A stretch of DNA of 64,000 bases, from NCBI GenBank assembly GCA_021513695.1, contig CP084166.1, positions 128,001-192,000 on the forward strand, written 5' to 3'. Below, one piece after another: positions 23,032 to 53,474 of this stretch; positions within the stretch are counted from its first letter, which is position 1, and every line of letters begins with the position of its first letter. This stretch comes from Candidatus Heimdallarchaeum aukensis (GTDB lineage Archaea > Asgardarchaeota > Heimdallarchaeia > Heimdallarchaeales > Heimdallarchaeaceae). The notes beneath the pieces were generated by a model. That model saw only the letters and a program-made list of their open reading frames with translations. It made no database searches and was not told the DNA's origin. The position numbers were made by a program, and so were the translations under genes.

Positions 23032-24774
23032 TTATTTGTCATTGATTTTTACTTGTAAGAAATACTCAATTATTTCTTTCAAATCTTTCTTTGTTATACG
23101 TTTATCTGACTGAATTCCACCTTTTTCTAAGACTATGTGTCTCATTCCTGGTCTTAACAAACTAAGATCATGCGAGCAAATAATTACTGTTGTTTGTAAT
23201 TTTTCTGCAACATCCATTAATACATCAATTATGGCTCTTGCCAAATCACTATCTAAATTAGCTGTTGGTTCATCTCCTATTAGAATAGGCGTTTTTCTTG
23301 TTAATGCAAGTGATAAGGAAGCTCGTTGTTTTTCTCCAGCAGAAAGTTCATCAGGATAAGCTTCTAACTTATGTTTTATTTGACATTCCTCAACCATATT
23401 TAGAGAGTACTCTTCATCATAGTCTAATTTAGAAAACAGATAAGGGACAAGAAGATTATCTTTAACTGTAACAGGTTCAAAGAGGTTATTATGCTGAGTG
23501 ATATAAGCAATGTTCTTTAATCTAAACATTGATGTTTCATATTCATCTTTATCATGAAGTGAAACATTATTGATAATTATTTCTCCTTTATCTGCTTTTA
23601 CAAGTCCTGTAATGCAATTAAAAAGGGTAGTTTTTCCTACTCCACTGGGCCCAGTAATCATTACGAAATCTCCTTTTTTAACTTCTAAGTTAATGTTTTT
23701 TATTACTTGATTATAACCTGCTGGAGAATGATATCCTTTGGAAACTCCTTTTAATTGCAAAATATTTTCTCTACTCTCTATGAAGTTGAATTTTCTGCTA
23801 ATAATTTTTTCAATTTCTTCATAAGAAATTTCTCGAGATTCTTTAATCGCTTCGTCAACTGGTTTATTCAAAATCTTGTATATTTCTTCTCTATTTACTA
23901 TATCAGGATTCCAAAATAAACCAAGAGATCCAGCAGGATGAGCGTCAAATTCTACTACATCATAAAGCTTTGTTTTCATCTTTATTTGATCAGGTATTCT
24001 AAGAAGGCTATTTTTATCTAAGTAAGCCCGATTATTTGTAGAAGAACTTGTCATAAATTCAAGTTTATCTTTTTCCATATCTTGACTTACTCCTACTAAT
24101 CTCCCATCTCTAATGATAAAGCTATGTTTGAATACATTTCTAAAGCGGATATCGTGAGTCACAACAACAATAGTTTTACCCGTGTTCTCGTTAATATCTT
24201 TTATAGTATTAATTACTTCTTTAGTATGCTCAGTATCTAATTGACCTGTAGGCTCGTCAAGAAGTAGAAATTTAGGATTTTTAGCTAAGGCTGCACCTAA
24301 AGATAAACGCATAGCCTCTCCACCAGAAATGCGAGAAACGAGATTATTTCGCACATGATATAAGTTTAACAGTTCTAAAATTTCCTTGACTTCTCTTCTG
24401 GCTTGCTCTCTTGGAATGTAAAATAATTTTTTGTGTATCATAAGATTCTTTTCAACAGAGAGATTTGAGAATAAGTTATCGCTAATATTTTGATTGATCA
24501 ACCCAATGTATCTGAATCTGAACTCTCTTAGTTGTTTTTGAGACATTTTTTCTAAATGATGGTTGTCAATAATGACTGATCCTCCAGTAATATCTTCTAA
24601 GCCAGATAAAATCTTGATTAATGTGGTTTTTCCTGCTCCAGAAGGACCAACTATACTTACAAGATCACCTTTTTCTACATATAAATCTAATCCTCTTAAA
24701 GCAGCAACTTTATAATCAGAATGAGGGTCGAAATAAATTTTAAATAAATCAATACATTGTATCATTTTTATCAC
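23032..24774 (-). CDS. ABC transporter ATPase with two fused NBDs, locus 2 (paralogue of 7576-9333)
   Basis: GPSGAGKTT / ISGGEAMRLS / LLLDEPT / VVTHD, then GPSGVGKTT / LSAGEKQRAS / ILIGDEPT / ICSHD. It is collinear with the locus-1 ATPase, including the linker LRIPDQIKMKTKLYDVVEFDAHP. The GTG at 24774 overlaps the permease stop; an ATG lies at 24765. Confidence 0.9.
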   Translation of the reverse strand: MIKMIQCIDLFKIYFDPHSDYKVAALRGLDLYVEKGDLVSIVGPSGAGKTTLIKILSGLEDITGGSVIIDNHHLEKMSQKQLREFRFRYIGLINQNISDNLFSNLSVEKNLMIHKKLFYIPREQARREVKEILELLNLYHVRNNLVSRISGGEAMRLSLGAALAKNPKFLLLDEPTGQLDTEHTKEVINTIKDINENTGKTIVVVTHDIRFRNVFKHSFIIRDGRLVGVSQDMEKDKLEFMTSSSTNNRAYLDKNSLLRIPDQIKMKTKLYDVVEFDAHPAGSLGLFWNPDIVNREEIYKILNKPVDEAIKESREISYEEIEKIISRKFNFIESRENILQLKGVSKGYHSPAGYNQVIKNINLEVKKGDFVMITGPSGVGKTTLFNCITGLVKADKGEIIINNVSLHDKDEYETSMFRLKNIAYITQHNNLFEPVTVKDNLLVPYLFSKLDYDEEYSLNMVEECQIKHKLEAYPDELSAGEKQRASLSLALTRKTPILIGDEPTANLDSDLARAIIDVLMDVAEKLQTTVIICSHDLSLLRPGMRHIVLEKGGIQSDKRITKKDLKEIIEYFLQVKINDK

Positions 24775-37968: not shown

Positions 37969-37983
37969 TTTGAAGTGACAAAT

Positions 37984-39738
37984 ATGGAAAGGAAAATAAA
38001 AGAAGAAGTTGAAGAATTTCTGAATTTAGAACCGAAAGAACAAATAAGTATCGTTCAAAATCAATGCGAAGAAGTAATTTCACAAATAAAAGAAAAAAAT
38101 GTTGACTTGGAACATTTCATATACCAAGTAACAAAATTCAAAACTTTTTTTTCTCTTTTAAGTAAAGTAAGAAGGATTTATAGAAAAGAATACTTTGATC
38201 TTGTAGTTAATACATTAGCTAAACTTTGGTATGCTGTCGAAAAGTGCCAATCTCAAAAGTTGCTTTACCCTACTTTATCCGCTTTTACAGAAGTATTTTC
38301 CAAACTCAAAGGGTTAAATCCGTACTTTACTTTAGAAGCTTGTATAAATAAAACAATCTCATACAGTTTACTCCCCTCAATTGTAGAGTTAGAGATTCTT
38401 CTATCAAAAGAAAAGCAACATCTTCAATTTCTTCTTGACTATTTTCAGTTAGAATCAGTTTTAAAGCTAGTAGAAAAAGAAGAAGAAAAAATAACAATAA
38501 TACAATCAGCAACAAATTACATTCAAACACTAATTTTAACCTTATACAATTTCCTTTTTACTATTCCTAATCTGAAAAAAAAGGACTTTATTTCATGGTA
38601 TAAATTATTTGAAGAAGCGTTAAGCAAAGCTATCTCAACACATAAACTACTACTAAAACAAGAACTTTCAGAGATAAATAAATTTAGGACACTTCTATCT
38701 AAATCCTCACTCCATTCTATAAAAGCACAACTATTACTACTTTGGATAAAGTTTCTAAACGAAAAAAATGAAGAGAAGTTAAATCTAGCCTTAATGGAAA
38801 ACACACAGGCCATGCAAACAATCGAACACCTGCTCGATAATTCAATATATAAAGAAAATGTTAAACCCTATTATTTCCAGTATAAAACATTATTTTTGGA
38901 AACACGATTTTATCAGTTACTACATAATTTTGTAAAAAGCCAGTTTAGAAATGATTTACGTGTAGGAGATATAAAAGATGACAAAAAATCTTTATCTCTT
39001 AAAAATCTTAAATTCCAAGTAGATGAAATATTGAATGAAATATGGGAATACATAAGTGAAATACAAACAAAGGGAGACGACAGTATTATTGGAGTTTCCT
39101 CAAATATGATAAACACTTATGCAAAAGTATCTTATGGAGCTTACATTTACGAAATAAGAGAGAATATAGAGCAGATGGAACAAATAATAAAAACAAGAAG
39201 ATTGGATATTAGCGACCCTGAGCTATCTCTCATGTTAGGAAATTATTGGTTGATGAAATGGGGAGAAAATAACGAAAATAATCGAAAATATCTAGAATTA
39301 GCTGAATCTTATTTCACACGAGCAGCAGAAATTTATCAAATATTATTTAACAACAAAAAACTTCCAATATATGCATTTAGCATTTCAGGACTAATTTCGT
39401 TAAGACAAAATAATCCTCCGAAAGCAGAAGTCTTTTTCATGAAAGCAGATGATGTATTTAATGATGCTAAATATGCAGAAATATTAAATGAATCAGAGAT
39501 ACTATACTATACAAAATTTAGAGAGCAAATTGATAGAATATTGAACAATGAAAAAATAAAAAAACCATTAAGATTTAATAAACCTTTTAACCCACTAGAT
39601 TTCAACACATGGACAATAGAAAAAAAAGACTGGAGAAAAAAGTTTTCTTATATTGCAGAACCATTTCCATTTCATTTAACACAATTAAAAATACATGAGT
39701 TTGAATTTATGAGCCCAAGAAAGGAGAACGAAGAATGA
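37984..39738 (+). CDS. Hypothetical helical protein (TPR-like C-terminal part)
   Basis: A long ORF directly after aor. The track start at 37975 is GTG; the ATG is at 37984. The sequence is helix-rich, and YLELAESYFTRAAEIYQILFNN...KAEVFFMKADDVFNDAKY looks TPR-like. I recognised no catalytic motif. Confidence 0.6.
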   Translation: MERKIKEEVEEFLNLEPKEQISIVQNQCEEVISQIKEKNVDLEHFIYQVTKFKTFFSLLSKVRRIYRKEYFDLVVNTLAKLWYAVEKCQSQKLLYPTLSAFTEVFSKLKGLNPYFTLEACINKTISYSLLPSIVELEILLSKEKQHLQFLLDYFQLESVLKLVEKEEEKITIIQSATNYIQTLILTLYNFLFTIPNLKKKDFISWYKLFEEALSKAISTHKLLLKQELSEINKFRTLLSKSSLHSIKAQLLLLWIKFLNEKNEEKLNLALMENTQAMQTIEHLLDNSIYKENVKPYYFQYKTLFLETRFYQLLHNFVKSQFRNDLRVGDIKDDKKSLSLKNLKFQVDEILNEIWEYISEIQTKGDDSIIGVSSNMINTYAKVSYGAYIYEIRENIEQMEQIIKTRRLDISDPELSLMLGNYWLMKWGENNENNRKYLELAESYFTRAAEIYQILFNNKKLPIYAFSISGLISLRQNNPPKAEVFFMKADDVFNDAKYAEILNESEILYYTKFREQIDRILNNEKIKKPLRFNKPFNPLDFNTWTIEKKDWRKKFSYIAEPFPFHLTQLKIHEFEFMSPRKENEE

Positions 39739-40732: not shown

Positions 40733-40803
40733 GTTCTAAACAAATGCTTTTTAAATGCTTTTACGGAATTTTTTCTAAACAGTTATTGTTGAGAGGTTTA
40801 CAT

Positions 40804-41199
40804 ATGACTATTCACGTACAATATCTATCTCAAGTTATAGTTAGAATGAAGTTTGAAGGCGATTTTGATGACAAATTGATCGATGAATTAGATCGTTGTC
40901 TGGATGAACAGATAGGGAATACCCAAAAACAGTTATTCTACTTAATTGATCTATCAAGTTATGATAAAATTACTGCTAATAATGCTTCAACTGTTATTGC
41001 TGATAAACTAGCAGAGAGGGGAGATATTATAGCTAATGTTGCTTTTCTTGGTCAGAAAAAGATTAAGATCAAGAATAAAGACATTAAAGCTAAGTCTGAA
41101 GTTTTCACTAGTGATTTTAGTGCACAAAACTGGATCAGTGACAAGTCTCGTCATGGTTTCTTGGACCATATTTCTGTGAAATCACTTTTGGATAGGTAA
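40804..41199 (+). CDS. Hypothetical protein, possibly STAS/SpoIIAA-like
   Basis: The track start at 40744 would leave only 11 nt to the divergent gtrA-like start, so the ATG at 40804 (MTIHVQYLSQ) is preferred. The pattern VRMKFEGDFDD...LFYLIDLSS...ANVAFLG...FTSDFSAQNWI resembles STAS_2-type domains. This assignment is weak. Confidence 0.45.
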   Translation: MTIHVQYLSQVIVRMKFEGDFDDKLIDELDRCLDEQIGNTQKQLFYLIDLSSYDKITANNASTVIADKLAERGDIIANVAFLGQKKIKIKNKDIKAKSEVFTSDFSAQNWISDKSRHGFLDHISVKSLLDR

Positions 41200-41208
41200 A
41201 GTAATTAC

Positions 41209-42174
41209 CTATTCTCCCAAATTTTTTCTCCAGTTGTAATCTTCTTTTGCTATCAGTGTAACAGCAGAATCTTCTTTTGAATCGATGATTTTTAATTCTG
41301 TATTTTCTATAATCTTCTTTGAAAATTCTAGTATTTTTGGGTACCTTGGCATTATTTCATAAGGTAACCTTTTTCTTGCGTCTCCAACACTCATAAAACC
41401 TTTTACTTCTAGAAAATGAGCTTCTGATCTTAAAAATAATTCAGCAAAAGCTTCTGGTTCGACTAAATTGTAGTTTTCATCTACTAAAGTTAATCTTATA
41501 ACTTTTCTAGTGTTAAGCGAAGGAAGTAATTCAATTGTTTCCATCACTTTGTTCCATAGATTTGAAAAAGAAGGACGAGCAGTTTTTTTGAAACTTTCTT
41601 CAGTAGGGGCAATTAGAGTAACATAGAGTTGAGTAGGAAGAGGGTCAAGTTTCTTCAACATTTCAGGATTAGTGCCATTAGTTACTAGAAAAGTAGTCAT
41701 ATCACGATTGTGGAACTCTTGAATTAATTCTGGTAACAAAGGATAGAAAGTTGGTTCTCCACTTAAAGAAATTGCAGCATGTTTTGGATTGTAAGCTTCT
41801 TCATATAATCTTGGTTCTACTTTTGGATGATTTTTGAATCCTGCAATTAGTCTTCTTTGATGTTCTATCATTTGATCAATAATATATTCCGGTTTGTCAA
41901 CTTTTCCTCTCATTAATTCTTTGTTGTACCATGATGCACTTCTCCAGCAAAAAACACATTTTAGATTACACCATATTGTTGCAGGAGTACATTGAAGACA
42001 ACGGTGAGAAGCTATTCCGTAAAATTGTTGTTTATAGCAAAAACCTTCTCCTTTTAACGCGTGCTTTAACCAGGTGCAAATTTTTACTGCAGAGTGATTA
42101 CCAGCTATTCTGTACTGTTGTTTTTCTAGTTTGTCTTTCAATTTTGGAGGAATAATGTTTGTATTTAAACTCAT
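41209..42174 (-). CDS. taw1: tRNA 4-demethylwyosine synthase Taw1 (archaeal TYW1, radical SAM), intact copy
   Basis: GNHSAVKICTWLKHALKGEGFCYKQQFYGIASHRCLQCTP followed by the radical SAM cluster CNLKCVFCWR. The protein is 321 aa. Confidence 0.9.
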   Translation of the reverse strand: MSLNTNIIPPKLKDKLEKQQYRIAGNHSAVKICTWLKHALKGEGFCYKQQFYGIASHRCLQCTPATIWCNLKCVFCWRSASWYNKELMRGKVDKPEYIIDQMIEHQRRLIAGFKNHPKVEPRLYEEAYNPKHAAISLSGEPTFYPLLPELIQEFHNRDMTTFLVTNGTNPEMLKKLDPLPTQLYVTLIAPTEESFKKTARPSFSNLWNKVMETIELLPSLNTRKVIRLTLVDENYNLVEPEAFAELFLRSEAHFLEVKGFMSVGDARKRLPYEIMPRYPKILEFSKKIIENTELKIIDSKEDSAVTLIAKEDYNWRKNLGE

Positions 42175-42301
42175 TAGATTTACTTATTTTTCTTTATTTT
42201 TAGACTTTATCTTTATTGAAATTTTTTTTGATTAAATTTACTATAAAATTAACAAAGGAAAACAATAGATTAAAATATTTAAAAAATTAAAATATACTGA
42301 T

Positions 42302-43417
42302 ATGGTTAGTATTAAAAAAGTTCTCAAGCAACTAGAAGATTCTGATCCTATAGTTCGAAGAGATGCAATACTTACTCTTGGAGAACTAAAAGACGAAAAA
42401 GGGGTTGATCCTTTAATTAAGTGTGTTCAACAAGAAATAAAAGAAAATAGAATCACCGCTATTGTTGCACTTTCAGATATTGGAGATCATAGGGCTATTG
42501 AAATATTAATCTACTGTTTAATGGATGATGATGAAGAAATAAGACTTGCTGCTGCTCGAGCTTTAGGACGATTTACTTCTCCTCAAGCTATCACTACTTT
42601 ACTTGTTTCATTAAAAAAAGACCCAAGTGTGAGAGTTAAGAGTCGTGCAGCTCTATCTTTAGGGAGTATTGGTTCAGAACTGCCTGTTGAAGAATTACTT
42701 AAAGAATCTAAATTAGAACACCCAACCACTCTTCTTTATTCTATAAATTCTGCTTTGACAATGATAGCAAAGAAAAATGGTTATAGTTCAGTAGATGAAC
42801 TTGTTCAAAAAATAAGGGCTAAAAAGGCAGAAGTAGATGAGAAAACACCAGAGCATAAACAAATTCAGGAGAAAGAAGAGCTCGAATCTTTTCCTCGTTT
42901 ATATGACTACATTAGAAAATATGTAGCTCGAGAACTAGAAGGGGTACAAACAGTATTAAGTATTAACTCAGATGAAAAGACTGCATCAAAGAAAATAGCT
43001 GATATTTTAGCAGAAAAATTCTGGAAATTTGCTGAATGGATCGGAAAAAGAATGGGACATAAATTAACTGAATATCAATCTGATTTGCTCTGGCAGATGA
43101 TATGGGATACATCAAGGCCAATTAGAAATGAAATTTACCAAATGATAAGAGATCATCGCTCAGAATTAGAGGAATTAAATCGATTCCAGAAATGGCTCAA
43201 CAAAATAGAAGAACAAAAAGAAGAAGAAATCGTTAAAGATATTGAAAGAAGCAGACCTAAACCCATTATTCAAACTTCAAATAATGTGAAAAAAGACGAA
43301 GCAGAGACAATTAGAGCTGCAGATTTGGCAAGAAGTATTTCTTCAAATCTTGAAGAAATAATGGGCAAATATTCTAGTTGGAAAACAAGAGAGTTAAAAG
43401 ATGAAGAAGATTATTAA
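42302..43417 (+). CDS. HEAT-repeat (PBS-lyase type) protein with C-terminal charged coiled-coil region, copy A
   Basis: LEDSDPIVRRDAILTLGELKDEKGVDPLI, IGDHRAIEILIYCLMDDDEEIRLAAARALGRF, KKDPSVRVKSRAALSLGSIG. Confidence 0.7.
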   Translation: MVSIKKVLKQLEDSDPIVRRDAILTLGELKDEKGVDPLIKCVQQEIKENRITAIVALSDIGDHRAIEILIYCLMDDDEEIRLAAARALGRFTSPQAITTLLVSLKKDPSVRVKSRAALSLGSIGSELPVEELLKESKLEHPTTLLYSINSALTMIAKKNGYSSVDELVQKIRAKKAEVDEKTPEHKQIQEKEELESFPRLYDYIRKYVARELEGVQTVLSINSDEKTASKKIADILAEKFWKFAEWIGKRMGHKLTEYQSDLLWQMIWDTSRPIRNEIYQMIRDHRSELEELNRFQKWLNKIEEQKEEEIVKDIERSRPKPIIQTSNNVKKDEAETIRAADLARSISSNLEEIMGKYSSWKTRELKDEEDY

Positions 43418-43542
43418 GCTTCTTTAAAATTCTGAAAATTGCCAAAAAAATTTTTCTAAAACAATTTTTTATTATTTATTAATTTTCGTAATACCTTGCT
43501 AATACTAAATCCTTCACGACAAAAACATATTTATTTCTGTTT

Positions 43543-43565
43543 ACAATTGTGATATAGTAGATATC
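43543..43565. promoter_or_regulatory. Palindromic elements directly upstream of the RHH gene (candidate operator); duplicated at 46891-46913
   Basis: ACAATTGT (43543-43550, a perfect palindrome) is followed by GATAT-AGTAG-ATATC (43551-43565, 5-bp inverted arms). They end 4 nt before the ATG at 43570. RHH regulators typically bind repeats in their own promoters. Confidence 0.3.
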
Positions 43566-43569
43566 TAAG

Positions 43570-43779
43570 ATGGAATATGGGGTTAATATGAAAAAAAAGC
43601 TGATTACATTTAAAGTAACAGAAGCTATGATGAAATGGATAGCAGAAATGATGGAAAAGGGGAATTATAAAAATAGAACAGAATTAATTGTAGATGCTCT
43701 TAGAGAGTTTCTCATCCAAGAAAGAATGGTTGAAGATCAGGAAGAACTAGAAGCAATTTTTGAAAGAATTGATGAATAG
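43570..43779 (+). CDS. Ribbon-helix-helix (CopG/Arc-like) DNA-binding protein, copy A
   Basis: KKLITFKVTEAMMKWIAEMMEKGNYKNRTELIVDALREFLIQE follows the beta-alpha-alpha RHH pattern (compare ...ggysnRSElireAlreyL). The likely true start is the second ATG (MKKKL) at 43588. Confidence 0.7.
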   Translation: MEYGVNMKKKLITFKVTEAMMKWIAEMMEKGNYKNRTELIVDALREFLIQERMVEDQEELEAIFERIDE

Positions 43780-43821
43780 TTCTCTTATAACTCCTTCTGT
43801 ATTTCTGTTATTTTAGCCCTA

Positions 43822-44629
43822 TTATTCAAACCAATACATAGATGTTTTTTCGAAACATTCTTTTGTTAAATTTTGTGAAAGCTTAAAATAATTAGTAACT
43901 TTTTTATCTATCCTTTTTCTGAAAATCACTGCTTGATTAAAATCTCTATCTGATTTTATCCAGTTTTTTGTAATTTCTTTCATTGTTACCCAGATATCAG
44001 AGGAAGGAAAAGGGATTGGTATCTCTCTAAAAAGGTTTGAAGTTATGTCTCTTACAATAAAACTTTCTACTATAAATTGAACAAATGAGGAGGAAAGATA
44101 ACCAAACAACCCATAAAGGTCTATTTGTTCATCAGGAATTATGATGTCAAAAATGTCGTTTACGTAATAGCCTTCTAGGTCCAAACCAATAAAATACTTC
44201 TTTCCTCTATTTCTACGGACTATTTTTGGTTTTTCAAATATTTGATGATCTCCTGGTGCTCCTAATACTTTTCTGTCATAAATTATTTTTTCTTTTCCTG
44301 GAAAAACTTCAAAGTTTATGACACCTTCTTTGTAATTATTTGAAAAGATATTGTGTCTTACTATTTCTACAGATTTAATTTCATTTGAATATTTCTTTTT
44401 TTTAATATACTTCTCTTTGTATCTCTTTGTTATCGTTAATCCTCGTCTAATAAAAGAATGTTCTTTTAATTTAGGGTAATTATTCAGGATAGTGCTGATT
44501 TCCTTTTGACTTTCAGAACTAAAATTTGAAAAAAGAAAAAGAGGAGGGAAAATGAAGCTATAGTCTATTTTGTGTTCATGATTATCTTTTCTTTTATGAA
44601 ATTTAATGTAATTACTTTCGTTTTTTAAA
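43822..44629 (-). pseudogene. 3' fragment (~268 codons) of the N6-adenine DNA methyltransferase gene, truncated at the duplication junction
   Basis: Identical to 47170-47977. It lacks the start codon, the SAM-binding motif and NPPW. Track ORF 43822-44184 (identical to the last 120 residues of the 663-aa protein except Leu544 read as Met from the TTG start) is only its tail. Confidence 0.8.
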
Positions 44630-45524
44630 AATCGATGATTTTTAATTCTGTATTTTCTATAATCTTCTTTGAAAATTCTAGTATTTTTGGGTACCTTGGC
44701 ATTATTTCATAAGGTAACCTTTTTCTTGCGTCTCCAACACTCATAAAACCTTTTACTTCTAGAAAATGAGCTTCTGATCTTAAAAATAATTCAGCAAAAG
44801 CTTCTGGTTCGACTAAATTGTAGTTTTCATCTACTAAAGTTAATCTTATAACTTTTCTAGTGTTAAGCGAAGGAAGTAATTCAATTGTTTCCATCACTTT
44901 GTTCCATAGATTTGAAAAAGAAGGACGAGCAGTTTTTTTGAAACTTTCTTCAGTAGGGGCAATTAGAGTAACATAGAGTTGAGTAGGAAGAGGGTCAAGT
45001 TTCTTCAACATTTCAGGATTAGTGCCATTAGTTACTAGAAAAGTAGTCATATCACGATTGTGGAACTCTTGAATTAATTCTGGTAACAAAGGATAGAAAG
45101 TTGGTTCTCCACTTAAAGAAATTGCAGCATGTTTTGGATTGTAAGCTTCTTCATATAATCTTGGTTCTACTTTTGGATGATTTTTGAATCCTGCAATTAG
45201 TCTTCTTTGATGTTCTATCATTTGATCAATAATATATTCCGGTTTGTCAACTTTTCCTCTCATTAATTCTTTGTTGTACCATGATGCACTTCTCCAGCAA
45301 AAAACACATTTTAGATTACACCATATTGTTGCAGGAGTACATTGAAGACAACGGTGAGAAGCTATTCCGTAAAATTGTTGTTTATAGCAAAAACCTTCTC
45401 CTTTTAACGCGTGCTTTAACCAGGTGCAAATTTTTACTGCAGAGTGATTACCAGCTATTCTGTACTGTTGTTTTTCTAGTTTGTCTTTCAATTTTGGAGG
45501 AATAATGTTTGTATTTAAACTCAT
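44625..45524 (-). CDS. taw1: Taw1 duplicate, C-terminally truncated at the duplication junction (last 23 residues replaced by Phe-stop)
   Basis: The first 298 residues are identical to 41209-42174. The frame then crosses the junction at 44629|44630 and terminates. It is unknown whether the product is functional. Confidence 0.6.
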   Translation of the reverse strand: MSLNTNIIPPKLKDKLEKQQYRIAGNHSAVKICTWLKHALKGEGFCYKQQFYGIASHRCLQCTPATIWCNLKCVFCWRSASWYNKELMRGKVDKPEYIIDQMIEHQRRLIAGFKNHPKVEPRLYEEAYNPKHAAISLSGEPTFYPLLPELIQEFHNRDMTTFLVTNGTNPEMLKKLDPLPTQLYVTLIAPTEESFKKTARPSFSNLWNKVMETIELLPSLNTRKVIRLTLVDENYNLVEPEAFAELFLRSEAHFLEVKGFMSVGDARKRLPYEIMPRYPKILEFSKKIIENTELKIIDF

Positions 45525-45649
45525 TAGATTTACTTATTTTCTTTATTTTTAGACTTTATCTTTATTGAAATTTTTTTGATTAAATTTACTATAAAATTAA
45601 CAAAGGAAAACAATAGATTAAAATATTTAAAAAATTAAAATATACTGAT

Positions 45650-46765
45650 ATGGTTAGTATTAAAAAAGTTCTCAAGCAACTAGAAGATTCTGATCCTATA
45701 GTTCGAAGAGATGCAATACTTACTCTTGGAGAACTAAAAGACGAAAAAGGGGTTGATCCTTTAATTAAGTGTGTTCAACAAGAAATAAAAGAAAATAGAA
45801 TCACCGCTATTGTTGCACTTTCAGATATTGGAGATCATAGGGCTATTGAAATATTAATCTACTGTTTAATGGATGATGATGAAGAAATAAGACTTGCTGC
45901 TGCTCGAGCTTTAGGACGATTTACTTCTCCTCAAGCTATCACTACTTTACTTGTTTCATTAAAAAAAGACCCAAGTGTGAGAGTTAAGAGTCGTGCAGCT
46001 CTATCTTTAGGGAGTATTGGTTCAGAACTGCCTGTTGAAGAATTACTTAAAGAATCTAAATTAGAACACCCAACCACTCTTCTTTATTCTATAAATTCTG
46101 CTTTGACAATGATAGCAAAGAAAAATGGTTATAGTTCAGTAGATGAACTTGTTCAAAAAATAAGGGCTAAAAAGGCAGAAGTAGATGAGAAAACACCAGA
46201 GCATAAACAAATTCAGGAGAAAGAAGAGCTCGAATCTTTTCCTCGTTTATATGACTACATTAGAAAATATGTAGCTCGAGAACTAGAAGGGGTACAAACA
46301 GTATTAAGTATTAACTCAGATGAAAAGACTGCATCAAAGAAAATAGCTGATATTTTAGCAGAAAAATTCTGGAAATTTGCTGAATGGATCGGAAAAAGAA
46401 TGGGACATAAATTAACTGAATATCAATCTGATTTGCTCTGGCAGATGATATGGGATACATCAAGGCCAATTAGAAATGAAATTTACCAAATGATAAGAGA
46501 TCATCGCTCAGAATTAGAGGAATTAAATCGATTCCAGAAATGGCTCAACAAAATAGAAGAACAAAAAGAAGAAGAAATCGTTAAAGATATTGAAAGAAGC
46601 AGACCTAAACCCATTATTCAAACTTCAAATAATGTGAAAAAAGACGAAGCAGAGACAATTAGAGCTGCAGATTTGGCAAGAAGTATTTCTTCAAATCTTG
46701 AAGAAATAATGGGCAAATATTCTAGTTGGAAAACAAGAGAGTTAAAAGATGAAGAAGATTATTAA
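45650..46765 (+). CDS. HEAT-repeat protein, copy B (identical translation to 42302-43417)
   Basis: The 371-aa translation is identical to copy A. Confidence 0.7.
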   Translation: MVSIKKVLKQLEDSDPIVRRDAILTLGELKDEKGVDPLIKCVQQEIKENRITAIVALSDIGDHRAIEILIYCLMDDDEEIRLAAARALGRFTSPQAITTLLVSLKKDPSVRVKSRAALSLGSIGSELPVEELLKESKLEHPTTLLYSINSALTMIAKKNGYSSVDELVQKIRAKKAEVDEKTPEHKQIQEKEELESFPRLYDYIRKYVARELEGVQTVLSINSDEKTASKKIADILAEKFWKFAEWIGKRMGHKLTEYQSDLLWQMIWDTSRPIRNEIYQMIRDHRSELEELNRFQKWLNKIEEQKEEEIVKDIERSRPKPIIQTSNNVKKDEAETIRAADLARSISSNLEEIMGKYSSWKTRELKDEEDY

Positions 46766-46917
46766 GCTTCTTTAAAATTCTGAAAATTGCCAAAAAAATT
46801 TTTCTAAAACAATTTTTTATTATTTATTAATTTTCGTAATACCTTGCTAATACTAAATCCTTCACGACAAAAACATATTTATTTCTGTTTACAATTGTGA
46901 TATAGTAGATATCTAAG

Positions 46918-47127
46918 ATGGAATATGGGGTTAATATGAAAAAAAAGCTGATTACATTTAAAGTAACAGAAGCTATGATGAAATGGATAGCAGAAATGAT
47001 GGAAAAGGGGAATTATAAAAATAGAACAGAATTAATTGTAGATGCTCTTAGAGAGTTTCTCATCCAAGAAAGAATGGTTGAAGATCAGGAAGAACTAGAA
47101 GCAATTTTTGAAAGAATTGATGAATAG
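46918..47127 (+). CDS. Ribbon-helix-helix DNA-binding protein, copy B
   Basis: The 69-aa translation is identical to copy A. Confidence 0.7.
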   Translation: MEYGVNMKKKLITFKVTEAMMKWIAEMMEKGNYKNRTELIVDALREFLIQERMVEDQEELEAIFERIDE

Positions 47128-47169
47128 TTCTCTTATAACTCCTTCTGTATTTCTGTTATTTTAGCCCTA

Positions 47170-49161
47170 TTATTCAAACCAATACATAGATGTTTTTTCG
47201 AAACATTCTTTTGTTAAATTTTGTGAAAGCTTAAAATAATTAGTAACTTTTTTATCTATCCTTTTTCTGAAAATCACTGCTTGATTAAAATCTCTATCTG
47301 ATTTTATCCAGTTTTTTGTAATTTCTTTCATTGTTACCCAGATATCAGAGGAAGGAAAAGGGATTGGTATCTCTCTAAAAAGGTTTGAAGTTATGTCTCT
47401 TACAATAAAACTTTCTACTATAAATTGAACAAATGAGGAGGAAAGATAACCAAACAACCCATAAAGGTCTATTTGTTCATCAGGAATTATGATGTCAAAA
47501 ATGTCGTTTACGTAATAGCCTTCTAGGTCCAAACCAATAAAATACTTCTTTCCTCTATTTCTACGGACTATTTTTGGTTTTTCAAATATTTGATGATCTC
47601 CTGGTGCTCCTAATACTTTTCTGTCATAAATTATTTTTTCTTTTCCTGGAAAAACTTCAAAGTTTATGACACCTTCTTTGTAATTATTTGAAAAGATATT
47701 GTGTCTTACTATTTCTACAGATTTAATTTCATTTGAATATTTCTTTTTTTTAATATACTTCTCTTTGTATCTCTTTGTTATCGTTAATCCTCGTCTAATA
47801 AAAGAATGTTCTTTTAATTTAGGGTAATTATTCAGGATAGTGCTGATTTCCTTTTGACTTTCAGAACTAAAATTTGAAAAAAGAAAAAGAGGAGGGAAAA
47901 TGAAGCTATAGTCTATTTTGTGTTCATGATTATCTTTTCTTTTATGAAATTTAATGTAATTACTTTCGTTTTTTAAATCCATTGATAACAAAAAGAATTC
48001 ATTGGAAACGTCTTTAAAGGAATAATCTAAATCTGTGTAAATTTCTACATCATATCTATTATCTTTGAGGTGTTTTCTCCATTTCTTGCCATAAGTATCA
48101 GTTATGATACCTGAAGGTAATATTAATCCTACTTTCTCTTTGGATAAACTTTCTGCAATGATCAAAAAAGGTAGAGCAAAATTATATTTTCCAAAGATTC
48201 TATTTTTATAAGGTTCTCTCTTTAAGAATTCTTTATATCTATTATTTATTTTTTTATATTCTATCCACGGTGGATTTCCAATAACAAAATCAAAAAATTT
48301 TTTCTGAAGACTTAAACTTTCATCAAAAAATATTTCAGGCAAATCAACAAAAAAGCTAAATTTGGATAGAGAAGGATATTTCTTCGATATTTCATCTCTT
48401 TTTGTTAAACATTCTTTTATATCTTGAAAAGAAATTTCTTTTTTACCAAATATCACTTCTCTTCTTTTTTCACGAAGTATCGCTAAAAGTTTCAAAAAAG
48501 TTGTATTTTTTCTTTCTGACATTTGCTTTATTATTCTTTCATCATAACCAAGAATGCTATCTCCGTATTTTGAGATTAAAGGAAGTAATTTTCTTTTTCT
48601 ATTATCTTGTAACATGAAAAAGAGTTTGAAAACTTGAAATTCATAAATAAATGGATCAACTTCAACTGAATATGGCATAATCTCTTGTTTTTCAAAAGCT
48701 GGGTAGAGAAAATCTCCTATTCCTGAAGAAATATCGATAACTGTTTTAGTTTTTTTAGAATTGTTACTCAAAATATCTAATAAATCATATACCTTTTTAA
48801 CAAGAATCCTATTAGTAAAATATTGACCTGTTAATCTCGTTTTATCTTGAATAAGTGATAAAATATTAACTTCATTTATTGTCTTGATTATATTTTTGAT
48901 TTGTTCAAAAACCCAAACTGGTAACTTTTTTTCTAGAACTCTGAGTTTTTCTAACGATAGAAGTATTTGCTTATCATCTTGATTTAGATTAACCAGATTT
49001 ATTAACGAAGTTTTTTGTTGATTTTGTTCAGATGAAAAGGATGAAGAATTGTAAATAAAGTAAAACTTTACTATCATCGATTTTAATTCATTAACTGAAA
49101 CTTTGTACCTACTAGCCTTTTTCTGAATTCTACTATGTAGATTTTCCTCTTTTATTTCCAT
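47170..49161 (-). CDS. N6-adenine DNA methyltransferase (gamma-class, Eco57I/TaqI-like) with C-terminal target-recognition region
   Basis: Motif order X-I-IV: GQYFTNRILVKKVYDLL, VIDISSGIGDFLY (SAM-binding), FDFVIGNPPWIEYKK (NPPW catalytic). I could not see a PD-(D/E)xK nuclease motif. Confidence 0.85.
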   Translation of the reverse strand: MEIKEENLHSRIQKKASRYKVSVNELKSMIVKFYFIYNSSSFSSEQNQQKTSLINLVNLNQDDKQILLSLEKLRVLEKKLPVWVFEQIKNIIKTINEVNILSLIQDKTRLTGQYFTNRILVKKVYDLLDILSNNSKKTKTVIDISSGIGDFLYPAFEKQEIMPYSVEVDPFIYEFQVFKLFFMLQDNRKRKLLPLISKYGDSILGYDERIIKQMSERKNTTFLKLLAILREKRREVIFGKKEISFQDIKECLTKRDEISKKYPSLSKFSFFVDLPEIFFDESLSLQKKFFDFVIGNPPWIEYKKINNRYKEFLKREPYKNRIFGKYNFALPFLIIAESLSKEKVGLILPSGIITDTYGKKWRKHLKDNRYDVEIYTDLDYSFKDVSNEFFLLSMDLKNESNYIKFHKRKDNHEHKIDYSFIFPPLFLFSNFSSESQKEISTILNNYPKLKEHSFIRRGLTITKRYKEKYIKKKKYSNEIKSVEIVRHNIFSNNYKEGVINFEVFPGKEKIIYDRKVLGAPGDHQIFEKPKIVRRNRGKKYFIGLDLEGYYVNDIFDIIIPDEQIDLYGLFGYLSSSFVQFIVESFIVRDITSNLFREIPIPFPSSDIWVTMKEITKNWIKSDRDFNQAVIFRKRIDKKVTNYFKLSQNLTKECFEKTSMYWFE

Positions 49162-49243: not shown

Positions 49244-51307
49244 ATGTCTCATATATTGAAGCAAAATGTAAAGATACCCAAAGAAATACTCCCATTCTAT
49301 AAATTATTTAATGATTATGAGAAAGAACAATTTCAAAAATTGTCATCTTTAAACCAAATGTCTAATTTAAATGAAATAGGTACATTATTGTTAGATATCT
49401 TTAATAAAGAAATTGAACACACTTCATATTTTATGCTTGCTCTTGGCAGAATATTATATCATACTTCAGATATGTTAAATCTTGAAAATATCTATAAAGA
49501 AACCGATTCTGCTGAAATAGGGTTATGGTACGCTTTCTTGAGAATTATTAGTTCAGACGATGTACGAAAGGAAGAAATTCTATTAGATCAACTGAAAGAA
49601 AAACTAAATTATTCCTTATTGCACCTTCTTTGGACTATTGTTGAGCTTAATTTTTATGTATATTCAGGAAATCAATTTAATTTTAGAGAAACTAAAGATA
49701 TTATAATTAATCGTTTTTTAGTTGAAGATATCGAAAATAGAGAAAAACATAAAGTGATTTTCAAGCTTTTTTATTCATATATTTTAATTATAGAAATAAA
49801 TTTGAATTTTCTACAGAATCACATTTCATATGCTAAAGACCTACTTATCCATGCTTCTGATATTATAGTTACTTTAGAAGATAGGATTTTAGAGTCGATG
49901 CAACTTAGATTATCTGCATTAATTGAGTTAAGAAAAAACAACTTTTCAACAGCTCAACATCTATTTTTACGTTCTCTTGCTCTCGCAGATATGTTAAAAG
50001 AAATAAGATTTGCAATACAAGTTAATTCAGAAATTGGAGACCTATATCTACAGATGGGCCATGTTAAAGATGCAAAATTGTTTTACGATAAATCACTAGA
50101 GCTTTTAAAAAAGCATGTACCTTATGATTCTTCATTGCAAGGCATTCTACTTTCTAAGATTGCTGATTACTATTTTGTGAATGAAAAGTTTCAAAAGTCT
50201 CTAGATTTGCTTGATGAAGCTCTTTCATTCTTTAAAGTAGATAATAATTTTTCATTTCAGATCAAACTCAAATACATTGAATATCTTTTAAATTTGAAAA
50301 AAGTTAATAAAGCAGAATCTTTGTTGGTTTCAAGTTTTCAAAAGAAAGACAATTATCTTTATTTGCAGAATCAGAGTTTTTGCCTGTATTTAAGAGGATT
50401 TATTGAATTTCTTAAGAAGAATTTTGGTAAAGCCCAGTCTTTCCTCTATGAGGCAATAGGGATTGCAGATAGAACAGGAGATGAATGGACCAGTTCAAAA
50501 TCTTTAGTTCTTCTTTTAATTTTGCTTCTTCTAAAGTATAACTTAGCTTCAAAAGTAGACGATATAGTAGAAGCAGACAAGTGTGTAGATGATATAATTA
50601 CATTTTTAGAAGAAAAAGCGAAGTTTAAAGAACTTGCTCAGATATATCTAATTCGAGCTAAGATAAGAAAAATACTTCTCGACTTTGAGACTTCACTTTT
50701 TTTACTGAAAACAGGAGAAAATATAGCTAGACAGTATTATCCTGAACTTATTACTAAATATGAAGAAAATATTGATGAGATTTCTAGACTCTTAAATTTT
50801 GAAAACATTGCAGAGACAGAAACACCCTCCATAGATTTCAAGGAAGATATTGACACAATTTTTCAAATTCTTATCAGACAGACTAAAAAACTTGGTTCTC
50901 CAATAGAAAGTATTACAATAGCCGTACTTATTTTTCATTCAAGCGGTATACCAGTTCGGACTTATCGTTCTGAAGAGCTCTATATTAGTGATGATATGAT
51001 CTTTGGTGGTTTTGTGTCAGCAATAAGACATCTGCTTGATGAATTGTTCTATTCCCAAGAATCAAAGTCTTTAAGTGTTGATCATGGACAGTACAAGCTT
51101 CTAATTGAGTTTTACAAGAATTTATTTTCTATTGTTATTCTTACTGTTCGAGATAGCTTCTTGTTACGCAGAAAGATGCATCAATTAGTTAGTTTTGTAG
51201 CTTCAAAGGATCTGTTCAAAGAGAAATATTTTGGTAAAATTGATGAACTTGCTTTGAGAGACATTGATTCATTTGTTGAGAAGTTGTTTAAAGTCAAAAA
51301 GAATTAG
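49244..51307 (+). CDS. TPR-repeat protein with C-terminal roadblock/longin-like domain (paralogue 1)
   Basis: TPR-like units, for example IGDLYLQMGHVKDAKLFYDKSLELL. The C-terminal ~130 aa are IAVLIFHSSGIPVRTYRSEE..DDMIFGGFVSAIRHLLDELF...GQYKLLIEFYKNLFSIVILTVRDSFLLRRKMHQLVSFV. Confidence 0.7.
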   Translation: MSHILKQNVKIPKEILPFYKLFNDYEKEQFQKLSSLNQMSNLNEIGTLLLDIFNKEIEHTSYFMLALGRILYHTSDMLNLENIYKETDSAEIGLWYAFLRIISSDDVRKEEILLDQLKEKLNYSLLHLLWTIVELNFYVYSGNQFNFRETKDIIINRFLVEDIENREKHKVIFKLFYSYILIIEINLNFLQNHISYAKDLLIHASDIIVTLEDRILESMQLRLSALIELRKNNFSTAQHLFLRSLALADMLKEIRFAIQVNSEIGDLYLQMGHVKDAKLFYDKSLELLKKHVPYDSSLQGILLSKIADYYFVNEKFQKSLDLLDEALSFFKVDNNFSFQIKLKYIEYLLNLKKVNKAESLLVSSFQKKDNYLYLQNQSFCLYLRGFIEFLKKNFGKAQSFLYEAIGIADRTGDEWTSSKSLVLLLILLLLKYNLASKVDDIVEADKCVDDIITFLEEKAKFKELAQIYLIRAKIRKILLDFETSLFLLKTGENIARQYYPELITKYEENIDEISRLLNFENIAETETPSIDFKEDIDTIFQILIRQTKKLGSPIESITIAVLIFHSSGIPVRTYRSEELYISDDMIFGGFVSAIRHLLDELFYSQESKSLSVDHGQYKLLIEFYKNLFSIVILTVRDSFLLRRKMHQLVSFVASKDLFKEKYFGKIDELALRDIDSFVEKLFKVKKN

Positions 51308-51389: not shown

Positions 51390-53474
51390 ATGTCAGTAGT
51401 ATACAGTTTCCCTAGGGAATATAGTCATTATATCCCTCTTTTCACTAGAGAAGAACAAGATTTGATTAACAACTTTTCATCAAAAGTTAATAAAGATACT
51501 TCAATGGGAATCTTGAAAGATATCCTTTTAGATATTTTAGATAATCTTTCTTCCCCTTCTCTCTATTTCTTATACTCACTAGGTAAAGTTTTATTCATTT
51601 CTAGTAATTATAATCTACTTGAAGAACTCAATAAGAAATATAAAAGTGAGAGTTTAGAGCTGTGGTGGGGAAATGCTCTAATAAGGCGAACTGAGAATGA
51701 TAAAGTAATTAATCTCGCTTTGAAAATACTCAACAAGAATCCTGAAGAAAAAATAATTAGATTACATTGTTATGCCCTTTTAGCTAATGCATATGCAAAT
51801 ATGGAAAGTGAAAATCAATATAGACATTATATGCAAGAACTCTATCATGAGTCAATTATCTTTCATAGAGATTTAGATAAAGAAAAAATTGTAATAAATG
51901 ATATCCTTCTTTTTGCACATGCTATTGACATTTGGAAAGAGAGAATATCTGCACCTCTTTTAAAACTTGAAAACAAAATTGATGTAGCTTTTCAAATTGC
52001 AAAAGAACTAGGAGATCGTTATCACCTTGGAAGGTTGTACAACATAAGAGGAGTAATTTACAGATATGTAGGAAGAATCTCTGATTCATTTGAATTTATA
52101 AATAAGGCTATAAATTATTATAAAGCAGTTGGAGCTAGGAGAGGAGTAGCAGCAGCAAAAGCAAATCTTGCAACAATTTATACAATTAAAAATGAACTAG
52201 ATAAAGCCGAGAAATTACTAAAAGAGTCTCTCTCAATTTTTTTGGAAGTAGGTGATTACAAAAATCAATCCTTAATTCACTCTTCTTTAGGTGAAATTGC
52301 TATTGCTAAAGGAGATTATCACTCTGCTTTAGAATTGTATGAAGAATCTGTAAGTATATTGGAGCAAATAAACGCACACGAACTACAAGTTTATTGCTCT
52401 TTAGGCGAATTATATTATTTCTTAGGAAATAAAGAAAAAATGAAAATAATAATGAAATTCCTGCAAGAGACAGACAAAAAGAAAGAAGGATTCGTCTATG
52501 GATATTATAATTTGTTTAAAGCTCTTTTAGAAATTGATAACATGAATTATGGTAAAGCAAATGAATACTTGGAAAAAGCTTTGTCTATAAGTGATACAAG
52601 AGGAACAGGATTTTTCTCTGCAAAAATACTTCTTCAACTGTCATTGATCAACATAAAGCAATATGATTCTTTTCAAGAAAAGGAGTATTTAGAAAAAGCA
52701 AAACAGTACATAAATGATTTAGAACCATTTTATGAAGAGTTGAATAAAACAATTGAACATGTAATAATTCTATTGGTTCTTTCAAAAATATATGCAGTAA
52801 TGGAAGAATATACGAAGTCTTTTAACATTTTACAAAAAGCAAAAGATCGTCTTAATTTGTCAAAGAAAGAAAGAAAAAAGGATAAATATTACCACTTAAT
52901 AGAAAATAGAATTAAAGAACTTGAAGAAATCTTTTCAAAAGCCAAAACCGAAACATCATTCCAAAATGAAACTTTTCAATATGAAATTAAAGAAATGGAA
53001 AGTATAAGCATTAGACAAATATCAGAATATGAAAAAGAATTAAGAACTTCAATATTGGCACTTTTAATAGTACATCCTTCAGGAATACCTTTAATGAATT
53101 ATACGCTCAAGAGGTCTAGTCAATTTAGAGATGAACTAATGTTTGGAGGTTTTATTGTAGCTGTAAAAGACATGATAGAAGAGTTATTCTCTAATCCAAT
53201 GCAGAGTAAAGTAATGGTCATTAGCTATGGTAATAATAAGATAATAATGGAGCACAGTCCAAAGAGAAATTTTAGTGTAATTATTTTATCATCAAAGGAT
53301 AGTTTTATTCTACGAAGAAAAATTCATCGATTAACTCAAAATCTACAAGATATAGAGCTCCCGCAACAGTATATTGGAGAATTGACCCCTAAAACAGCTT
53401 CAAGAATAAATGAAGAAGTAAAAAATGTTTTTGGAGAAAACTTAATGCTATATGAAGGTGCTGTTCATATTTAG
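51390..53474 (+). CDS. TPR-repeat protein with C-terminal roadblock/longin-like domain (paralogue 2)
   Basis: Clear TPRs: LGRLYNIRGVIYRYVGRISDSFEFINKAINYYKAVG, AAAKANLATIYTIKNELDKAEKLLKESLSIF, SSLGEIAIAKGDYHSALELYEESVSI. C-terminus: ILALLIVHPSGIPLMNYTL...DELMFGGFIVAVKDMIEELF...NKIIMEHSPKRNFSVIILSSKDSFILRRKIHRL. It is collinear with 49244-51307. Confidence 0.7.
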   Translation: MSVVYSFPREYSHYIPLFTREEQDLINNFSSKVNKDTSMGILKDILLDILDNLSSPSLYFLYSLGKVLFISSNYNLLEELNKKYKSESLELWWGNALIRRTENDKVINLALKILNKNPEEKIIRLHCYALLANAYANMESENQYRHYMQELYHESIIFHRDLDKEKIVINDILLFAHAIDIWKERISAPLLKLENKIDVAFQIAKELGDRYHLGRLYNIRGVIYRYVGRISDSFEFINKAINYYKAVGARRGVAAAKANLATIYTIKNELDKAEKLLKESLSIFLEVGDYKNQSLIHSSLGEIAIAKGDYHSALELYEESVSILEQINAHELQVYCSLGELYYFLGNKEKMKIIMKFLQETDKKKEGFVYGYYNLFKALLEIDNMNYGKANEYLEKALSISDTRGTGFFSAKILLQLSLINIKQYDSFQEKEYLEKAKQYINDLEPFYEELNKTIEHVIILLVLSKIYAVMEEYTKSFNILQKAKDRLNLSKKERKKDKYYHLIENRIKELEEIFSKAKTETSFQNETFQYEIKEMESISIRQISEYEKELRTSILALLIVHPSGIPLMNYTLKRSSQFRDELMFGGFIVAVKDMIEELFSNPMQSKVMVISYGNNKIIMEHSPKRNFSVIILSSKDSFILRRKIHRLTQNLQDIELPQQYIGELTPKTASRINEEVKNVFGENLMLYEGAVHI

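Follow-up and report, generated by a model that had tools for sequence, protein, structure and literature searches.

A likely very recent head-to-tail duplication of a 3.35-kb segment in the deposited genome of Candidatus Heimdallarchaeum aukensis PM71

Introduction

Asgard archaea are the closest prokaryotic relatives of eukaryotes. The deposited complete genome of Candidatus Heimdallarchaeum aukensis PM71 includes the 64-kb stretch of DNA analyzed here (64,000 nt, hereafter the window), in which a segment of 3.35 kb occurs twice in immediate succession, with both copies annotated in the record. Is the second copy part of the chromosome or a product of its assembly? An earlier note, made from the sequence alone, had offered precisely these alternatives, a very recent duplication or an assembly artefact. 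The likely answer, in our view, is that the segment was truly duplicated in tandem, head to tail and very recently, in the chromosome of the sequenced PM71 population.

Extent and identity of the repeat

Global alignment of the two copies (Table 1) yields 3348 identical positions, 0 substitutions and two 1-nt gaps, and a match of 3.35 kb at 99.94% identity is far above what chance would produce in such a sequence. Both gaps fall in T runs of the spacer between taw1 and the HEAT-repeat gene: the T5 at 42187-42191 and T8 at 42222-42229 of copy A become T4 at 45537-45540 and T7 at 45571-45577 in copy B. The copies abut head to tail without a spacer, through one novel joint, and the match cannot be extended by even one base on either side (41279 is G vs A at 44629; 44630 is A vs T at 47978). 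The repeat described in the earlier note is confirmed: its coordinates hold to the base, the base-by-base alignment shows no differences beyond the two T-run changes, the gene coordinates shift by 3350 nt in the case of taw1 and by 3348 nt in that of the HEAT, ribbon-helix-helix (RHH) and methyltransferase-tail genes, and all duplicated translations are identical on comparison. Within the 64-kb window, no further copies of the exact unit occur at unlinked sites; apart from the two copies, the repeats of 60 nt or more comprise just two short tandem arrays (12479-12742 and 19558-19791) and a diverged inverted pair (segments at about 8020-8917 and 23433-24330).

Table 1. Features of the duplicated segment and its boundary genes, in window coordinates
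Feature	Coordinates	Strand	Basis or remark
Intact taw1 (predicted TYW1, 4-demethylwyosine synthase), 321 aa	41209..42174	-	Pfam Radical_SAM and Wyosine_form; PDB 2YX0, E=3e-86; NCBI name
Copy A of the repeat unit	41280..44629		3350 nt; full-length match at 100% identity to Logan contig SRR15988954_11202 (exactly 3350 nt)
HEAT-repeat protein, copy A, 371 aa	42302..43417	+	Pfam HEAT_2, E=3.6e-26
RHH protein, copy A, 69 aa (63 aa in the NCBI call)	43570..43779	+	Pfam RHH_1, E=5e-5
Methyltransferase 3' fragment (residues 396-663 and part of codon 395)	43822..44629	-	TaqI_C specificity domain only
Novel joint ...TTTCGTTTTTTAAA / AATCGATGATT...	44600..44659 (44629/44630)		Methyltransferase interior fused to 3' part of taw1; 0 nt microhomology
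Truncated taw1', 299 aa (298 native residues and Phe, then stop)	44625..45524	-	Deposited as UJG40983.1
Copy B of the repeat unit	44630..47977		3348 nt; sole differences from copy A are T4 in place of T5 and T7 in place of T8
HEAT-repeat protein, copy B, identical to copy A	45650..46765	+	Translation comparison, NCBI record
RHH protein, copy B, identical to copy A	46918..47127	+	Translation comparison
Intact DNA methyltransferase (predicted Eco57I-family, N6-adenine), 663 aa	47170..49161	-	Pfam Eco57I and TaqI_C; PADLOC MTase_II; motifs; UJG40986.1

Genes within and across the repeat boundaries

The gene at the left boundary is assigned on sequence grounds to the TYW1/Taw1 radical-SAM 4-demethylwyosine synthases. 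Its scores for PF04055 and PF08608 exceed the Pfam cut-offs, it has the radical-SAM CxxxCxxC cluster motif in the form CNLKCVFC, and residues 5-313 match the solved Taw1 structures 2YX0, 6DJT and 2Z2U at E=3e-86 to 8e-69. The repeat leaves out its final 23 codons (41209-41279). The truncated version lacks the conserved C-terminal EDSAVTLI segment; the missing residues, 299-321, fall within the Wyosine_form match and correspond to conserved positions of 2YX0 and 6DJT in the alignment.

The gene at the right boundary is predicted to encode an Eco57I-family N6-adenine DNA methyltransferase. It has the AdoMet-binding motif I as DISSGIGDF (residues 143-151), the catalytic motif IV as NPPW (296) and the target-recognition domain TaqI_C (510-593), and PADLOC calls it MTase_II (E=3.6e-14). 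No nuclease partner was found among the ORFs and Pfam matches of the neighboring genes. Its C-terminal 268 codons (47170-47977) lie within the repeat, and the fragment that these codons form in copy A has neither motif I nor NPPW, nor an ATG, GTG or TTG start before 44184. The two genes between these boundaries are duplicated whole; the HEAT entries UJG40981.1 and UJG40984.1 are one and the same sequence at NCBI. Domain matches bear out the earlier identification of all four genes—Radical_SAM and Wyosine_form together with the TYW1 structures for taw1, HEAT_2, RHH_1, and Eco57I/TaqI_C for the adenine methyltransferase—and the ORFs and motifs agree with its reading of the two sides, an intact taw1 with a dead 3' methyltransferase fragment in copy A and an intact methyltransferase with a taw1 ending in Phe-stop in copy B. 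No Rfam RNA families were found in the window.

DNA methyltransferases and small RHH regulators are gene types common on mobile elements, raising the possibility that a mobile cassette (a transposon, integrative element or plasmid insert) was inserted beside its own copy. However, both ends of the unit lie mid-codon inside housekeeping or host genes, the unit has no terminal inverted or direct repeats, target-site duplication, transposase or integrase, its genes are only the four listed above, and no tRNA gene is present. Further, the sister species Ca. H. endolithica has the same four genes in the same order and context at 85-88% identity, which indicates that they were vertically inherited. 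We regard a cassette as very improbable.

The joint and its probable origin

The joint links codon 395 of the 663 codons of the methyltransferase to codon 299 of taw1, leaving 298 native residues followed by Phe-stop (299 vs 321 aa); alignment and codon positions agree with the earlier description of a methyltransferase interior fused to taw1 23 codons before its stop. Since the repeat cannot be extended by one base on either side, the joint is without microhomology. Nor is there significant similarity between the two parental breakpoint sites: their best local alignment covers 13/16 positions, lies 2 nt out of register, and has a score of 15 that is reached by 30-45% of random or shuffled pairs (p about 0.3-0.45 vs random pairs). 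Homologous or microhomology-mediated recombination at the breakpoints is accordingly unsupported, their alignment being no better than that of random pairs, and the lack of shared homology points to illegitimate recombination.

We propose that a single illegitimate, homology-independent joining between sister chromosomes or replication arms linked the point in the methyltransferase to the point in taw1. As tandem duplications in general do, it would leave each boundary gene intact once, taw1 on the left and the methyltransferase on the right. The joint would yield two dead-end products, namely a taw1 shortened by 23 C-terminal residues and a methyltransferase tail, likely promoterless and catalytically empty, that follows immediately downstream on the same strand. 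In both copies the HEAT and RHH genes are complete and retain the whole upstream spacer, which probably doubles their dosage. The duplication may be unfixed because such structures collapse readily through homologous recombination.

Spontaneous tandem duplications by illegitimate recombination are known in bacteria, among them the short-junction duplications of Salmonella. Duplications formed in this way in Acinetobacter baylyi usually have joints with 0-5 bp of identity (Reams & Neidle; PMC9997567). The A. baylyi cat-region amplicons resemble the present locus in several respects: they are built of head-to-tail copies that meet at one novel junction with 0-5 bp of identity (PMC9997567), their boundary genes are split with one intact copy of each kept, a young event leaves identical copies, and instability and population polymorphism are expected. 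They differ in size, being 12-290 kb, so that the 3.35-kb unit is much shorter (PMC9997567), and in setting—the host here is an uncultured Asgard archaeon from an enrichment, with no known selection for the duplicated genes.

Single-copy relatives and the age of the duplication

The single-copy arrangement taw1-HEAT-RHH-methyltransferase, which the earlier note had proposed looking for in related genomes, is present in both Ca. H. endolithica and strains represented in JGI metagenomes. In Ca. H. endolithica PR6 (CP084167.1, 219-240 kb), the order is TPR-TPR-methyltransferase-RHH-HEAT-taw1, with taw1 93% identical to that of the window at the amino acid level and the DNA 85-88% identical. Contigs from JGI metagenomes (two or more samples), 98.4-99.4% identical, likewise have a single copy that continues through both boundaries. 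In PR6 and the JGI contigs Ga0366834_1006968 and Ga0366832_1009023, the gene order, orientation, flanking genes and gene lengths (321, 371, 63-69 and 663 aa) are those of the window, and the flanks and unit of the window are collinear with these loci; unlike the window, they have one 3.35-kb segment and both boundary genes are uninterrupted. Because the sister species and the metagenome strains of 98-99% identity are single-copy, the duplication appears younger than the strain divergence; every relative examined agrees with the very recent origin suggested by the earlier note.

An older duplication, with its copies held identical by gene conversion, could in principle give the same picture, and tandem copies in general are known to homogenize. 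Against this, the strains are only 0.6-1.6% diverged and they and the sister species are all single-copy, while the 3.35 kb shows 0 substitutions, including in both non-functional fragments. Such an origin is therefore very improbable. Of the positions inside the unit, 37 differ between the JGI strain and the window, and the two window copies share one allele at 37/37.

Indirect evidence for the joint in independent re-assemblies

De Bruijn contigs necessarily break at repeat boundaries. In an independent re-assembly of run SRR15988954 (Logan, k=31), contigs 100% identical to the window break in just this way: SRR15988954_4408 (21,538 nt) ends at 41309, that is 41279+30; SRR15988954_11202 is exactly 41280-44629; and SRR15988954_5275 begins at 47948, that is 47978-30. 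Breaks with a k-1 overlap at exactly both repeat ends are the pattern expected of a self-loop from the unit to itself, as predicted for a graph in which two successive units lie between the flanks; a path running straight from one flank through a single unit to the other is not what this assembly shows, as it branches at both ends to the base. In a second run, SRR15988958, a Logan contig begins at the same base, 41280. An origin of these contig ends from strain SNP bubbles was considered and rejected, the nearest differences to the co-occurring lineage being at least 46 nt from either boundary. From the branching at both ends of the unit, we infer that the novel joint is very probably present in the reads. 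The branching is compatible with a chromosomal tandem copy or a circular unit, and with a major or a minor genotype. Among the assemblies examined, the joint is crossed by the deposited genome only: an exact search of JGI metagenome contigs with a 43-nt joint-spanning sequence gave 0 matches, in samples that hold the related single-copy strain, and the 299-aa taw1', looked up as an exact sequence across public assemblies, is on record for the NCBI genome alone.

Possible assembly over-count, amplification or extrachromosomal circle

The dominant chromosome could instead be single-copy, with the second copy written by loop traversal in the assembler or by LRScaf. Reads across the joint would then come from a rare duplication present as a minority variant, or else from the unit excised as a 3.35-kb circle, and rolling-circle amplification by phi29 during MDA would turn such a circle into Nanopore reads of several units in succession. 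According to the genome paper, metaSPAdes contigs were scaffolded twice by LRScaf with MDA-amplified Nanopore reads and then polished with Pilon (346x); such a pipeline, with no validation specific to this locus, can pass through a loop too often or write overlapping ends twice. The locus is neither mentioned nor verified in that paper, in which the copies are undiscussed and the word "duplication" occurs 0 times; 0/5 of its published finishing primers for PCR and Sanger regions occur in the window, and a literature search for Heimdallarchaeum with "tandem duplication" found no paper. The single-copy state of all relatives would also fit an over-count, as would the two homopolymer deficits of copy B, which are typical of long-read or polishing error. 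The T-run lengths in the two JGI strains and both Logan contigs are those of copy A, which matches every short-read contig. On the reading of a genuine duplication, too, the changes in copy B most probably reflect leftover errors of sequencing or polishing, not mutations.

Among documented assembly errors are false duplications, and those described by Ko et al. (2022, Genome Biol., PMC9516828) share with this locus near-identical adjacent copies, a scaffolded or hybrid assembly and differences in homopolymer length only. However, they come from diploid vertebrate assemblies, where haplotype heterozygosity or sequencing errors are the main causes, and a purely computational duplication without joint reads would not make an independent re-assembly branch exactly at the two ends. 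The joint k-mers must be abundant enough for the Logan graph to fork on both sides of the unit in SRR15988954 and on its left side in the second run. A non-replicating circle or a very rare variant is unlikely to reach that level in unamplified DNA; by Table S6 of the genome paper, the Illumina library was made from unamplified DNA and MDA was used for the Nanopore libraries only (the numbers and platform of runs SRR15988954, SRR15988958 and SRR15988959 are absent from the paper's supplements). Moreover, one joint accounts for both branch points, which is the most economical configuration, and Pilon at 346x neither removed nor broke it. The alternatives set out in the earlier note remain the correct pair, and the branching at both ends shifts the balance towards a real joint; we regard an over-count as unlikely.

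In run SRR15988958, the unit assembles to 3.25 kb, whereas five flanking genes (61, 93, 131, 171 and 687 aa) are not recovered intact. This would be in keeping with an over-count, and the uneven recovery is also a weak hint that the unit is over-represented beyond 2x in this run. The joint might belong to an ongoing, selected gene amplification during laboratory enrichment or to its by-product, a 3.35-kb extrachromosomal circle, an explanation that we consider improbable. Were it true, copy number could exceed two and be uneven across libraries, of which the recovery in SRR15988958 may be a hint, and the locus would be a directly observed homology-independent duplication raising HEAT and RHH dosage in an Asgard archaeon.

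Implications

A tandem duplication of this kind is ordinary biology, and known mechanisms are unchanged whether the second copy is real or over-counted. The main import lies in data quality. Very few Heimdallarchaeial genomes are closed, and that of Ca. H. aukensis PM71, one of them, is in wide use for studies of eukaryote origins; its record holds an extra HEAT protein, an extra RHH protein and a truncated TYW1 entry (UJG40983.1), all of which paralogue counts and gene-gain analyses will take as real genes. If the second copy was over-counted, the deposited record needs correction. If it is real, as we consider likely, the locus would represent a small, clean gene duplication by illegitimate recombination in an Asgard archaeon, younger than the 1% divergence of its strains.

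A 3.35-kb unit repeated head to tail

The segment 41280-44629 of the window recurs at 44630-47977, exactly as the earlier note had claimed. The base-by-base global alignment of the two copies (A and B) has 0 substitutions and two 1-nt gaps, and the T-run changes that the note had listed are thus the sole differences. Both gaps sit in T runs of the 127-nt spacer that separates taw1 from the divergent HEAT-repeat gene; the runs read T5 (42187-42191) and T8 (42222-42229) in copy A and T4 and T7 in copy B. The repeat is not extendable by even one base on either side; hence, the unit measures 3350 nt in copy A and 3348 nt in copy B, and the novel joint, 44629|44630, is without microhomology. The reciprocal deletion joint of the unit would read ...CTTCTTTTG|TCCATTGATAAC.... 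No comparable repeat was found elsewhere in the 64-kb window. We regard this arrangement as most likely a tandem duplication that arose very recently in the PM71 population.

Genes in and around the repeated unit
Feature	Position	Strand	Remarks
taw1/TYW1	41209-42174	-	321 aa; Radical_SAM + Wyosine_form; PDB 2YX0 match E=3e-86
HEAT-repeat protein, copy A	42302-43417	+	371 aa
RHH protein, copy A	43570-43779	+	69 aa
MTase 3' fragment	43822-44629	-	specificity domain only
taw1' (truncated taw1)	44625-45524	-	299 aa; end ...IIDF-stop
HEAT-repeat protein, copy B	45650-46765	+	
RHH protein, copy B	46918-47127	+	
Intact Eco57I-family adenine methyltransferase (MTase)	47170-49161	-	663 aa; motif I 143-151, NPPW 296, TaqI_C 510-593

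The taw1 gene is cut within codon 299, the MTase gene within codon 395. The C-terminus of taw1' and the domain content of the MTase fragment (Table) agree with the initial description of a copy B taw1 ending in Phe-stop and a copy A MTase reduced to a 3' piece. The frame of this fragment has no ATG, GTG or TTG before 44184. Residues 299-321, absent from taw1', contain the segment EDSAVTLI, which aligns with conserved residues in all three solved Taw1 structures; because this conserved C-terminal segment is lost, taw1' is probably impaired. The HEAT and RHH genes retain their complete upstream spacers in both copies.

Single-copy relatives and the age of the event

A single-copy arrangement, for which the earlier note had proposed looking in related genomes, is present both in the sister species and in a close strain. 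In H. endolithica PR6 the genes are arranged TPR-TPR-MTase-RHH-HEAT-taw1, in one copy and flanked as in the window (taw1 93% identical in amino acids, DNA 85-88% identical to the window). JGI metagenome contigs from at least two samples (3300033148, 3300033149) are 98.4-99.4% identical to the window, single-copy and unbroken through both boundaries. At the 37 positions within the unit that distinguish the JGI strain from the window, copies A and B are alike in every case (37/37). Given the single-copy state of this strain and of the sister species, the duplication would be younger than the ~1% strain divergence, unless it is not biological. The single-copy, syntenic relatives and the position of the breakpoints within codons also speak against two other origins: an old duplication whose copies have been made uniform by gene conversion is very improbable, and a mobile cassette is scarcely credible.

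The HEAT gene (42302-43417) is a SNP hotspot relative to one contig of the JGI strain (L001), with 29 nt differences in 1116 nt and only 5 amino acid changes. Beyond it, the single-copy ~2.3 kb comprising the RHH gene and the 3' half of the MTase gene (compared stretch 43365-49000, to 49000) has 0 differences. Such a SNP-dense gene beside a difference-free stretch suggests recombination between strains.

Evidence for the joint in individual sequencing runs

The Logan re-assemblies (k=31) of individual SRA runs give indirect evidence on the joint. For SRR15988954, contig _4408 (21,538 nt), from the left flank, stops at window position 41309, 30 nt (k-1) inside the unit; contig _11202 is exactly 3350 nt, equalling 41280-44629 at 100%; and the right-flank contig _5275 (7,708 nt) starts at 47948, 30 nt short of the end of copy B. 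Each of the three is 100% identical to the window. Contig breaks with a k-1 overlap imply that, in the de Bruijn graph, two k-mers lead into the unit's first k-mer and two follow its last one; a single added link from the end of the unit back to its start accounts for both branch points. SNP bubbles against the related strain were rejected as the cause of the breaks: on the left side, the nearest differences lie at 41233 and 41398, and between 43364 and 49000 there is none. A contig of SRR15988958 has the same start, 41280, and runs to 44533, where the sequence is A-rich. Because the SRR15988954 graph branches at both unit ends, the assemblies argue strongly that joint-containing reads exist, and this branching would rule out a purely computational duplication without read support. 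The same pattern fits equally a duplication fixed in the chromosome, a sizeable sub-population and a circular copy of the unit. No independent contig across the joint was found among the Logan, public protein and JGI metagenome records.

Logan also breaks at another tandem repeat: the far end of _4408 falls, by arithmetic, at ~19772, inside a tandem pair of 117-nt units (19558-19791, 97% identical).

PM71 was assembled from Illumina PE150 reads with metaSPAdes, scaffolded twice by LRScaf with Nanopore sequence and polished with Pilon at 346x; the Nanopore libraries came from MDA-preamplified DNA and the Illumina library (NEBNext) from extracted DNA (Wu et al. 2022, Nat Microbiol, PMC8813620). 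Run SRR15988954 probably stems from this unamplified Illumina DNA (FW4588, BioProject PRJNA721962). The assembly pipeline leaves room for the main rival explanation, a consensus over-count, in which joint reads from a minority variant or circle led loop traversal or LRScaf to write a second copy. Also on the side of the over-count, the locus is without validation in the PM71 assembly, the primers that the authors used for PCR/Sanger finishing all lie outside the window, and copies A and B differ in homopolymers only. The unit, which reaches 3.25 kb in SRR15988958, is possibly over-represented in that run, from which five flank genes (61, 93, 131, 171 and 687 aa) were not recovered intact—an argument qualified by the unconfirmed platform and by a T7-to-T6 difference in a contig of a third run, SRR15988959, suggestive of long-read data. 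Against this stands the clean branching of the SRR15988954 graph, and we hold the over-count to be unlikely.

The copy A lengths, T5 and T8, also occur in both JGI strains and both Logan contigs, and at each site copy B lacks one T. With two homopolymer deletions and 0 substitutions in 3.35 kb, the copy B differences resemble errors left over from long reads or polishing more than mutations. The pattern is consistent with the second copy entering the assembly via Nanopore sequence, and is not decisive either way. The third-run contig (SRR15988959_37097, 1.4 kb) equals the window except for T7-to-T6 at 40681, which truncates a GtrA-family gene call to 124 aa; the cause is either a homopolymer error of long-read sequencing or a genuine frameshift variant.

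Probable mechanism of duplication

There is no significant similarity between the parental breakpoint sites: their best local alignment scores 15, which 30-45% of random or shuffled pairs from the window also reach, and it is offset by 2 nt from the register of the joint. Terminal repeats, recombinase genes and tRNA genes were looked for and none was found. Once the 3.35-kb copies exist, homologous recombination between them, as is established for tandem duplications, may collapse them, amplify them further or release a circle bearing the same joint. Ongoing selected amplification, or a circle, in the Asgard enrichment appears improbable. For the young tandem duplication that we favor, the best-supported mechanism would be one illegitimate joining event, independent of homology, between replication arms or sister chromosomes. 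Joins of this class predominate in Acinetobacter baylyi, with 0-5 bp identity at the join points (PMC9997567). The duplication would be a known kind of event, without an unusual mechanism.

Other features of the window and its relatives

Two adjacent large TPR proteins (49244-51307, 687 aa; 51390-53474, 694 aa) neighbour the MTase; both are conserved in H. endolithica too. In the JGI contig Ga0366832_1009023 (L040 2892-4927), the first is called as two pieces of 438 and 103 aa, and its gene may be disrupted in that strain. The ORFs 37975-39738 (587 aa) and 40744-41199 (131-151 aa) have no Pfam match and are conserved and syntenic in H. endolithica and the JGI strains. A 333-aa taw1 homologue (P0006), encoded on a 2,560-nt ENA contig, has N-terminal ~25 residues unrelated to the rest of the 90% cluster; the contig could be chimeric, or the start region a different one. 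An array of 33-nt tandem repeats (12479-12742; 73-100% identity between copies) appears to be intragenic; read in frame, each repeat would encode 11 residues. It probably belongs to the "intragenic tandem repeats" of the genome paper (PMC8813620). An inverted ~0.9-kb pair (8020-8917 and 23433-24330), 70-82% complementary and ~15 kb apart, probably represents diverged paralogous genes in opposite orientation.

The deposited genome

The duplication is included in the public complete genome of strain PM71, where the HEAT sequence is deposited as UJG40981.1 and UJG40984.1, taw1' as UJG40983.1 and the MTase as UJG40986.1. The genome paper covers non-tandem repeats, CRISPR arrays and intragenic repeats in its repeat analysis and makes no mention of this duplication, the word "duplication" being absent from its text (PMC8813620). 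The locus therefore calls for an annotation caveat in a much-used Asgard reference genome, which lists one additional gene each for HEAT and RHH along with a truncated TYW1 entry, and contains an unannotated MTase fragment.
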